Positions 21,774-22,055 of a stretch of 64,000 bases of DNA are shown piece by piece. Numbering within the stretch: position 1 is the first letter of the stretch; each line of letters opens with the position of its first letter. The stretch spans positions 3,334 through 67,333 of the forward strand of contig JAEUSP010000101.1 of the NCBI GenBank assembly GCA_016788565.1, given 5' to 3'. A model generated the notes under the pieces. That model saw nothing but the letters and a program-made list of their open reading frames with translations, did not search any database and was not told where the DNA came from. A program made the position numbers and the translations under genes. Origin of the DNA: Chlorobiota bacterium (GTDB taxonomy: Bacteria > Bacteroidota > Ignavibacteria > OLB7).

Positions 21774-21837
21774 GTTGTTGATGTACGTCGGCGGTATTGA
21801 ATTACCGTCATGTTCTTTGAAATGCCGGGTGGAGAGA

Positions 21838-21990
21838 CTGTTCCTCGCTTTGAGCGGGGATGTCCCGTTATTCACTCAGTTTTCTGTGGTGAATCCAAAT
21901 CGTTCCTGGCATAAGCCGGGATGCTTCGATAAGGTGTTGATTTCATCATCAGCACATCAAGAGTTCCTCGCTCTGAGCGGGGAGTTTGAT
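21838..21990 (+). CRISPR. Cryptic type I-E-like mini-array (3 divergent repeats, 2 hairpin spacers) inside an inverted repeat
   Basis: Repeats ctgttcctcgctttgagcggggatgtcccg (21838-21867), tcgttcctggcataagccgggatgcttcg (21900-21928), gagttcctcgctctgagcggggagtttgat (21961-21990); both spacers 32 nt; flanking IR at 21817-21835 / 21993-22012. Confidence 0.7.
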
Positions 21991-22055
21991 AATCTCCACC
22001 CGGCCATTTCAACCCCACCACATCATGCGCCTGCTATTCTACCAATCCACAAGAC

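Follow-up and report, generated by a model that had tools for sequence, protein, structure and literature searches.

A prophage-borne two-spacer mini-array as a probable mimic of the host CreR guide in a Chlorobiota bacterium with a type I-E CRISPR system

Here we report a small repeat array from the genome of a Chlorobiota bacterium that is probably a viral mimic of CreR, a regulatory guide of the host's own type I-E CRISPR system. The mini-array lies at positions 21817-22012 (+ strand) of a 64,000-nucleotide (nt) window, the whole stretch of DNA that was analysed (NCBI GenBank assembly GCA_016788565.1, contig JAEUSP010000101.1, positions 3,334 to 67,333 of the forward strand), and belongs to its prophage-like part. 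We read it as a prophage-borne two-spacer type I-E Cracr array, which would steer the host Cascade onto its own promoter and compete for Cas proteins; Cracr is the name given to viral copies of CreR (Liu et al., bioRxiv 10.1101/2024.10.29.618823).

Regulatory mini-arrays have been described near cas3 in type I-E loci, with copies in prophages (Shmakov et al. 2023, PMC10120712). A two-spacer I-E array of a Salmonella prophage is processed in a Cas-dependent manner, lowers casA transcription and restores phage infection, and all of its effects hinge on the spacer that mimics CreR (bioRxiv 10.1101/2024.10.29.618823). Viral CreR mimics are already known from work of 2023-2026; what is new here are the self-pairing guides, the stem that clamps the array, the host lineage, and the setting beside a TnpB-like gene and a further array.

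Results

The mini-array has the following parts, given in window coordinates:

21817..21835, + strand: 5' arm of the clamp (closing stem), an inverted repeat with 21994-22012, paired in the minimum free energy structure
21838..21867, + strand: psiR1, I-E-like repeat with a hairpin at 21843-21859 and an 8-nt handle at 21860-21867, which aligns with the host repeat of contigs C74 and C18
21868..21899, + strand: psiS1, 32-nt spacer, whose guide core (21868-21884) is a copy of the host CreR-like guide and whose 3' half folds onto the guide
21900..21928, + strand: psiR2, I-E-like repeat whose stem shows a compensatory change and which has an 8-nt handle to itself (21921-21928)
21929..21960, + strand: psiS2, 32-nt self-pairing spacer, target none identified
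21961..21989, + strand: psiR3, terminal I-E-like repeat, with the hairpin retained and the handle part lost
21994..22012, + strand: 3' arm of the clamp (closing stem), an inverted repeat with the 5' arm

The first spacer, psiS1, copies a guide of the host. It agrees with a spacer-like stretch of the host genome (psi-spacer, C74:20464) in 16 of 17 letters, the single mismatch falling at position 6, and begins in the same register as the host guide after an 8-nt handle. Every sixth guide position is unpaired in type I systems (PMC10120712), and all 15 pairing positions are identical. When the 4.58-Mb genome was scanned on both strands with every sixth position ignored, 79 sites fitted psiS1 at 12 or more of the 15 positions. 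A full fit (15/15) was found only for psiS1 itself and the host psi-spacer, and 14/15 at two sites, one in the cas8e promoter beside AAC and the other at C130:119351 (CGA). Because psiS1 both copies the host CreR guide and fits the cas8e promoter at 14/15, it points to a targeting regulator mimic (Cracr) and not to a pure sponge. An earlier note on this DNA, made from the letters alone, had taken both spacers for non-targeting decoys; this does not hold for psiS1 and is possible for psiS2, which has no identified target.

The host genome contains a full type I-E locus on contig C74, in which Pfam recognised Cas3, Cse1, two Cas7e paralogs, Cas5, Cas6e and Cas1 in operon order, and arrays of 27 and 14 repeats (C74 and C18, respectively) with a 28-nt repeat and a 61-nt period. 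The sole other match of the mini-array in its own genome is a 29-nt stretch on C74 (25/29, E 0.02), which sits within the 390-nt gap between cas3 and cas8e. This gap holds a degenerate mini-array (C74:20435-20505), composed of a repeat that keeps its handle, a 26-nt spacer-like stretch and a hairpin-only unit, followed by a strong terminator and then by TTGACT-18 nt-TATATT. Fifteen nt past the -10 hexamer stands AAC, and directly after it the site C74:20596, which fits the host guide and lies 143 nt before cas8e; the Salmonella CreR target is located about 140 bp before casA. The arrangement, as read from the sequence, fits that of a CreR-like autorepressor, a CRISPR-RNA-like molecule through which Cascade would keep its own operon repressed. 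It resembles the described host CreR and regulatory mini-arrays (bioRxiv 10.1101/2023.03.10.532045; PMC10120712) in position, in its split into handle and hairpin and in target distance; unlike these, the window element is prophage-borne, lies outside the cas locus and has two spacers. The host element, the promoter hexamers with their 18-nt spacing and the target are retained in two of the three other genomes of the genus (G018 and G019), with AAC or AAG as protospacer-adjacent motif (PAM).

Some further observations concern the host system. The two Cas7e genes lie in tandem in the operon (C74:23135-26142), and the second product (664 aa) has a C-terminal extension with an AT-hook match. A second, cut Cas6e gene was found at the edge of contig C1. 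Matches to host I-E spacers 8, 17, 20 and 23 occur elsewhere in the assembly (28-33 of 33 letters; contigs C123, C122, C1 and C99); they represent self-targets carried by further mobile elements, or else copies of the array from strain variants.

A second mobile-type copy was found on L105, a contig of 1184 nt from the JGI metagenomes, which carries a one-spacer mini-array with the same 8-nt handle and guide; the handle is identical to that of psiR1. The 3' half of the L105 spacer is wholly different from that of psiS1, yet it too folds onto the guide, with a different register (-7.6 kcal/mol; 1 of 300 shuffles reached this). When five guides were compared, positions 6, 12 and 18 were all variable, and among the other 15 only position 13 varied (in G018), where the G018 letter is also present in G018's own target. 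Variation at positions 6, 12 and 18 reads as a natural signature of Cascade use. Among 401 genomes of the class (G000 included), exact copies of the guide motif were found only in G000 (2 sites), G018 and G019; four matches had two mismatches, and the one examined (G537) lies inside a membrane-protein gene.

The element has the sequence traits by which Cracrs are recognised. At least 9 PAM-proximal nt are common to psiS1 and the host CreR spacer, which is not the case for psiS2; a target beside a PAM (C74:20596, AAC) lies in a cas promoter, itself recognised by consensus only; R1-R3 resemble the repeats of the targeted system and have the Cas6 hairpin; and the element is carried by a virus outside the host CRISPR-Cas locus, with a phage-borne array 2 kb downstream.

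All features described in the earlier note were located at 21817-22012. The repeat cores begin at 21840, 21902 and 21963, which gives the noted spacing of 62 and 61 nt. The stems (6-7 bp, each of the three with a U.G pair) read CCTCGC/GCGGGG in R1 and R3 and CCTGGC/GCCGGG in R2, so the compensatory change that had been noticed is two-sided and located in R2. R3 and R1 share 95% identity over 21 nt. R1 and the host repeat agree in the initial seven letters, in the stem apart from one C-to-U change, and in nine letters spanning the Cas6e cut site. The enclosing inverted repeat was likewise recovered; it has a perfect 12-bp core (21824-21835 with 21993-22004) and reaches 21817/22012 (19 nt) with one bulge.

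Folding of the whole element (21810-22020) yielded -97.0 kcal/mol for the + strand (z -8.45, 0 of 200 shuffles as good) and -81.9 kcal/mol for the - strand (z -5.51); U.G pairs exist on the + strand only, which therefore looks like the RNA strand. The hairpins of single repeats had -11.6 (R1), -12.5 (R2; 0 of 200 shuffles as good) and -12.7 kcal/mol (R3), and that of the host repeat -14.3 kcal/mol. Both 32-nt spacers self-pair, as had been claimed, with -8.7 kcal/mol for psiS1 (21868-21899; 1 of 300 shuffles as good) and -9.1 kcal/mol for psiS2 (21929-21960; 4 of 300). Self-pairing is common to all three mobile-element spacers and was found in none of the three spacer-like stretches of the hosts (0 to -0.9 kcal/mol). 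Together with the 19-bp clamp, the self-pairing of both spacers would most likely give a compact, nuclease-resistant precursor.

The mini-array is single-copy in its 4.58-Mb genome and was absent from the 20 other genomes of the family that were searched (E <= 0.001). When the genome was scanned for I-E-like hairpins with a loose regular expression, the three of the window were the only ones with regular spacing. Rfam gave nothing at E <= 1 for 20000-26000. The element is rare, with one relative in the JGI metagenomes; in IMG/VR the handle-plus-guide pattern had no match, and a degenerate hairpin pattern had 61 single matches (a pattern count only).

DNA near-identical to the element is present in the runs of 12 studies, mostly of activated sludge, and six RNA libraries contain it. 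Contigs of four RNA libraries (four studies) were placed on 19500-26000. All four covered the element, and none had anything in the flanking bins 19500-19933 and 25793-26000; uniform carry-over of DNA therefore does not account for the cover. In run X19, a 254-nt contig (21797-22050) had a depth of 60.8, compared to 2-3 for the neighbouring pieces. Contigs spanning the element and the downstream open reading frame (ORF) were obtained in two of the four runs (21688-22104 and 21887-22827).

The earlier note had proposed a phage RNA that acts on the host's type I-E proteins, and the full host locus, the matching repeat and the RNA libraries agree with this. It had also named three outcomes that would speak against the proposal: lack of transcription, spacers matching ordinary protospacers, and a conserved protein encoded by an overlapping ORF of 102 aa (21751-22059). 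The region is present in RNA libraries, and the spacers match no ordinary protospacer. The 102-aa ORF has no Pfam family match, and its frame contains a stop in L105, where the sole open frame is a different one; with that frame closed in L105, the conservation of the element is not protein-coding.

A search for the target of psiS2 was less productive. In its own genome, 51 sites fitted at 12 or more of the 15 positions, with 13/15 at the best four non-self sites, none of which is on the cas contig C74. Among 400 other genomes from the phylum, 9 contained the seed pattern of psiS2, compared to 6 for a reversed control, which is chance level, and none of the 9 matches had a repeat-like hairpin beside it. 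This spacer could serve as a decoy.

The first 36 kb of the window are prophage-like, with genes for a tape measure protein, a holin-like protein, phrog_644, phrog_1362 (7e-50), an RNA ligase (phrog_562, 1.7e-52) and an exonuclease. All large ORFs of this part are on one strand, and its G + C content is 0.44-0.52, compared to 0.54-0.60 in the host part beyond it. The nearest named relatives of the host exonuclease VII come from metagenome-assembled genomes labelled Armatimonadetes (88%), Chlorobi (84%) and Candidatus Kapabacteria (57-59%). The main features downstream of the mini-array are:

22056..23708, + strand: TnpB-family gene, 550 aa (TldR-like), recognised by Pfam and by NCBIfam (guided_TnpB, 171 bits)
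23725..23989, + strand: abundant structured RNA that separates the TnpB-like gene from the array, a leader or guide-RNA scaffold (fold z -3.33)
23990..24616, + strand: 11-repeat array with a 61-nt period, whose repeats have their 3' half in common with the host I-E repeat and lack its hairpin

Directly upstream of the mini-array (18355-21773) are two large ORFs of 468 and 457 aa. They had no confident Pfam match (two sub-threshold ones for the 468-aa ORF), no PHROG match and no NCBIfam match. Viral CRISPR RNA (crRNA) mimics have been reported beside anti-CRISPR genes, and the two ORFs are therefore candidates for such genes.

The TnpB-like protein was aligned with ISDra2 TnpB chains and six TnpB relatives. 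Residues D191 (RuvC-I) and E278 (RuvC-II) of ISDra2 TnpB are replaced by His, and D361 (RuvC-III) is kept; the same His/His/Asp pattern is present in three full-length relatives (P0002-P0004). The protein therefore falls under the operational cut for TldR (fewer than two residues of D-E-D kept); catalytic residues may occupy alternate positions (bioRxiv 10.1101/2023.11.30.569447). An insertion of roughly 60 aa near residue 50 is absent from P0004. The protein database contained four close relatives (83, 78, 59 and 96% identity, the last one incomplete), and related loci were found twice among genome contigs (27-29% identity) and 14 times in IMG/VR (21-44%), with none in the JGI metagenomes.

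The structured RNA is the deepest piece in all four RNA libraries (23725/23777 to 24017, depth 21-218) and starts just past the stop codon of the TnpB-like gene; it had no Rfam match. The repeat of the 11-repeat array has about 13 letters in common with the 3' half of the host repeat, and any hairpin is no better than in shuffles. Its spacers are 33 nt long, and A is the first base in 0 of 10 (host array on C74, 0 of 26; L105, 0 of 4). Spacers 7 and 9 are duplicates (24378-24411 and 24501-24534) and match inside three host paralogs of 1700-1800 aa (C130:130129, C130:70246 and C46:22679), each time after AAC; the matches lie within genes and not in promoters. At C130:130129, the mismatches within the spacer 7 guide fall on guide positions 12 and 18, both of which coincide with the third base of a codon. 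Spacer 1 has a partial match to a small contig beside AAG. No significant anti-repeat was found in the flanks (117 of 200 shuffled repeats paired as well), and neither the array repeat nor its degenerate form had a match in IMG/VR. By eye, the leaders of the host and phage arrays are alike in the last few bases only.

The order on L105 is mini-array, an ORF of 237 aa (with a hydrophobic stretch, no family match) and an array of the same hairpin-less repeat, with no TnpB-like gene in between. As L105 has both the mini-array and this repeat family, the mini-array and the hairpin-less array travel together.

Discussion

If the element acts as a Cracr array, its + strand would be transcribed, host Cas6e would bind the three repeat hairpins and cut past each stem, and host Cas proteins would assemble on the cleavage products. 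The psiS1 RNA, with the 17-nt guide of the host CreR, would direct Cascade to its target, which is 15 nt downstream of the cas8e -10 box and where pairing would be too short for Cas3 cleavage, so that transcription of the Cascade operon would be tightened. At the same time, immune crRNAs would face competition from both products and the hairpins for Cas6e and Cascade subunits, and the fold would serve stability or packaging. Cas6e processing, Cascade loading, repression and an anti-CRISPR effect are steps that we infer.

Several observations weigh against this reading. In the ensemble of the free RNA, R1 pairs with R3, and the probabilities of their own hairpins are 0.004 and 0.003; of the multi-arm hairpin RNA envisaged in the earlier note, the arms of S1 (0.95), R2 (0.81) and S2 (0.98) are stable. 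The guide is buried in the S1 hairpin at the said probability of 0.95, and given this and the pairing of R1 with R3, loading would require co-transcriptional binding or unfolding. Of 7 fixed positions, 2 are altered in the handles of the mini-array relative to the host handle. The guide comparison comprises two mobile-element and three host copies, all from one genus, and the cas8e promoter and its start point were read from consensus only. Neither a target nor a CreR counterpart was found for psiS2 in its own genome and the 400 genomes of the phylum. No host spacer matches the prophage, so that a present need for an anti-CRISPR is not visible, and the I-E locus and the prophage are on separate contigs of a 137-contig assembly. 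Among the RNA runs, the element is deeper than its flanks in only one of four, and the adapter-flanked ends (21827, 21887 and 22004) are off the predicted Cas6e sites; the end at 22004, beside adapter-like letters, coincides with the end of the perfect 12-bp stem, which is a weak hint. These RNA data are assembled contigs, which are uninformative on ends or strand, and since this applies to all four runs, neither the uncovered parts nor the lack of ends at Cas6e sites says anything.

Other explanations account for parts of the evidence. Racrs (PMC10651486) are solitary repeat mimics that sequester Cas proteins; like them, the window element is a viral repeat mimic that would bind Cas proteins, to which it adds a conserved guide. 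A pure sponge of this known class (PMC10651486), which would hold Cas6e and Cascade subunits in useless complexes and owe its likeness to CreR to its origin, would agree with the three Cas6e-type hairpins, with both spacers being locked in hairpins and with the lack of a psiS2 target. We nevertheless consider it unlikely, as two diverged mobile copies, wholly different beyond position 18, agree in the guide at each of the 15 pairing positions, and variation in the guide is confined to positions 6, 12 and 18 (apart from the G018 letter mentioned above). A sponge alone would de-repress a CreR-controlled operon (bioRxiv 10.1101/2024.10.29.618823), and the definition of a Racr, a repeat mimic without a guide to a regulatory target, does not cover an element with a conserved guide such as that of psiS1. 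Still less probable is a cis-acting leader, that is, a 5' untranslated region that controls the stability or translation of the downstream gene, perhaps via Cas6e cleavage. Such a role is suggested by the position of the element, with 44 nt between its end and the start codon at 22056, by the RNA-library contigs that join element and ORF in two of four runs, and by the L105 mini-array, which also lies about 70 nt before a gene. However, the downstream genes differ (TnpB-like here, a 237-aa protein without family match in L105), one run covers the element at about 20 times the depth of the ORF, and the copying of the host CreR guide would be left unexplained. The difference in downstream genes also weakens the version raised in the earlier note, in which tnpB expression would depend on Cas6e cleavage.

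That the element is a decaying, functionless remnant of a captured host CRISPR/CreR segment is very improbable. The repeats are indeed degenerate and mutually different, and the element is single-copy and rare, with one relative in a JGI metagenome and none in IMG/VR; but its stems are preserved via a compensatory change, self-pairing sets all three mobile spacers apart from the three host stretches, the structure has a z-score of -8.45, and the region recurs in RNA libraries and, near-identical, in the DNA of 12 studies. An ordinary I-E array or its remnant was also considered and rejected, as the repeats differ, the spacers self-pair, psiS1 is a host regulatory guide and no protospacer was found. 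We give hardly any credence to an element acting at the DNA level, such as a miniature transposon, an insertion sequence (IS) end or a recombination site marked by its terminal inverted repeat. The 19-nt inverted repeat does enclose 196 nt beside a TnpB-family gene, yet there is one copy in 4.58 Mb, the U.G pairs favour the + strand fold by 15 kcal/mol and would be needless in a DNA palindrome, and the ORFs listed for 19000-26000 include no TnpA. A miniature inverted-repeat transposable element and an IS200-IS605 end were ruled out because the element is single-copy.

As a Cracr array, the window element has much in common with the mimics already described. It is prophage-borne, has three repeat-like and two spacer-like units, and one of its spacers copies the guide of a host CreR whose target, beside an AAG-type PAM, is the first Cascade gene's promoter and is paired discontinuously; the second spacer has another or no known target. 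Unlike the described Cracrs, it has two full-length (32-nt) spacers that fold onto their own guides and a 19-bp closing stem, and it is directly followed by a TnpB gene with mutated RuvC residues and by an I-E-derived array. The main text of bioRxiv 10.1101/2024.10.29.618823, as distinct from its supplementary tables, contains neither 'inverted repeat' nor 'self-complementar', and the relatives of the window host, labelled Chlorobi or Kapabacteria, are outside the three phyla that it names for Cracr targets. The prophage mini-arrays of Acinetobacter and Moraxella (PMC10120712) similarly copy a host mini-array that regulates cas genes, and that of Moraxella has three repeats and two spacers; these mini-arrays are not type I-E (GG PAM), and their account in that paper does not describe self-pairing spacers. 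The neighbouring gene resembles TldR (Wiegand et al., bioRxiv 10.1101/2023.11.30.569447), a TnpB homologue of prophages that retains at most one of the three RuvC residues and adjoins an abundant non-coding RNA. Unlike TldR with its single fixed guide, it precedes a multi-spacer CRISPR-type array and keeps the C-terminal zinc-finger/RuvC part, and its function is predicted.

A more speculative and rather doubtful extension is that the mini-array, the RuvC-mutated TnpB-like protein and the 11-repeat array form a three-part prophage silencing cassette, in which Cascade would be reprogrammed, a guide library would be bound without cutting, and the host Cas1-Cas2 would fill the array. In such a cassette, the lack of a Cas6e hairpin would make the array unusable by the host Cascade, and the host Cas1-Cas2 would fill it because the I-E period and the PAM-derived first base are retained. 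If true, the cassette would be a phage-owned, adaptive and nuclease-free CRISPR-like system that borrows spacer acquisition from a disarmed host, and the self-pairing guides would be a new way of packaging viral crRNA mimics.

Read as a viral CreR mimic, the mini-array would extend the Cracr type from targets in three phyla to an uncultivated lineage of activated sludge, with all three elements (host regulator, promoter target and viral copy) legible in a single genome. For viral RNAs that mimic CreR, a principle of packaging or stability is suggested by the clamp together with the self-pairing of the guides, and the RuvC-mutated TnpB beside an I-E-derived array hints at how transposon nucleases acquire arrays from resident CRISPR systems.

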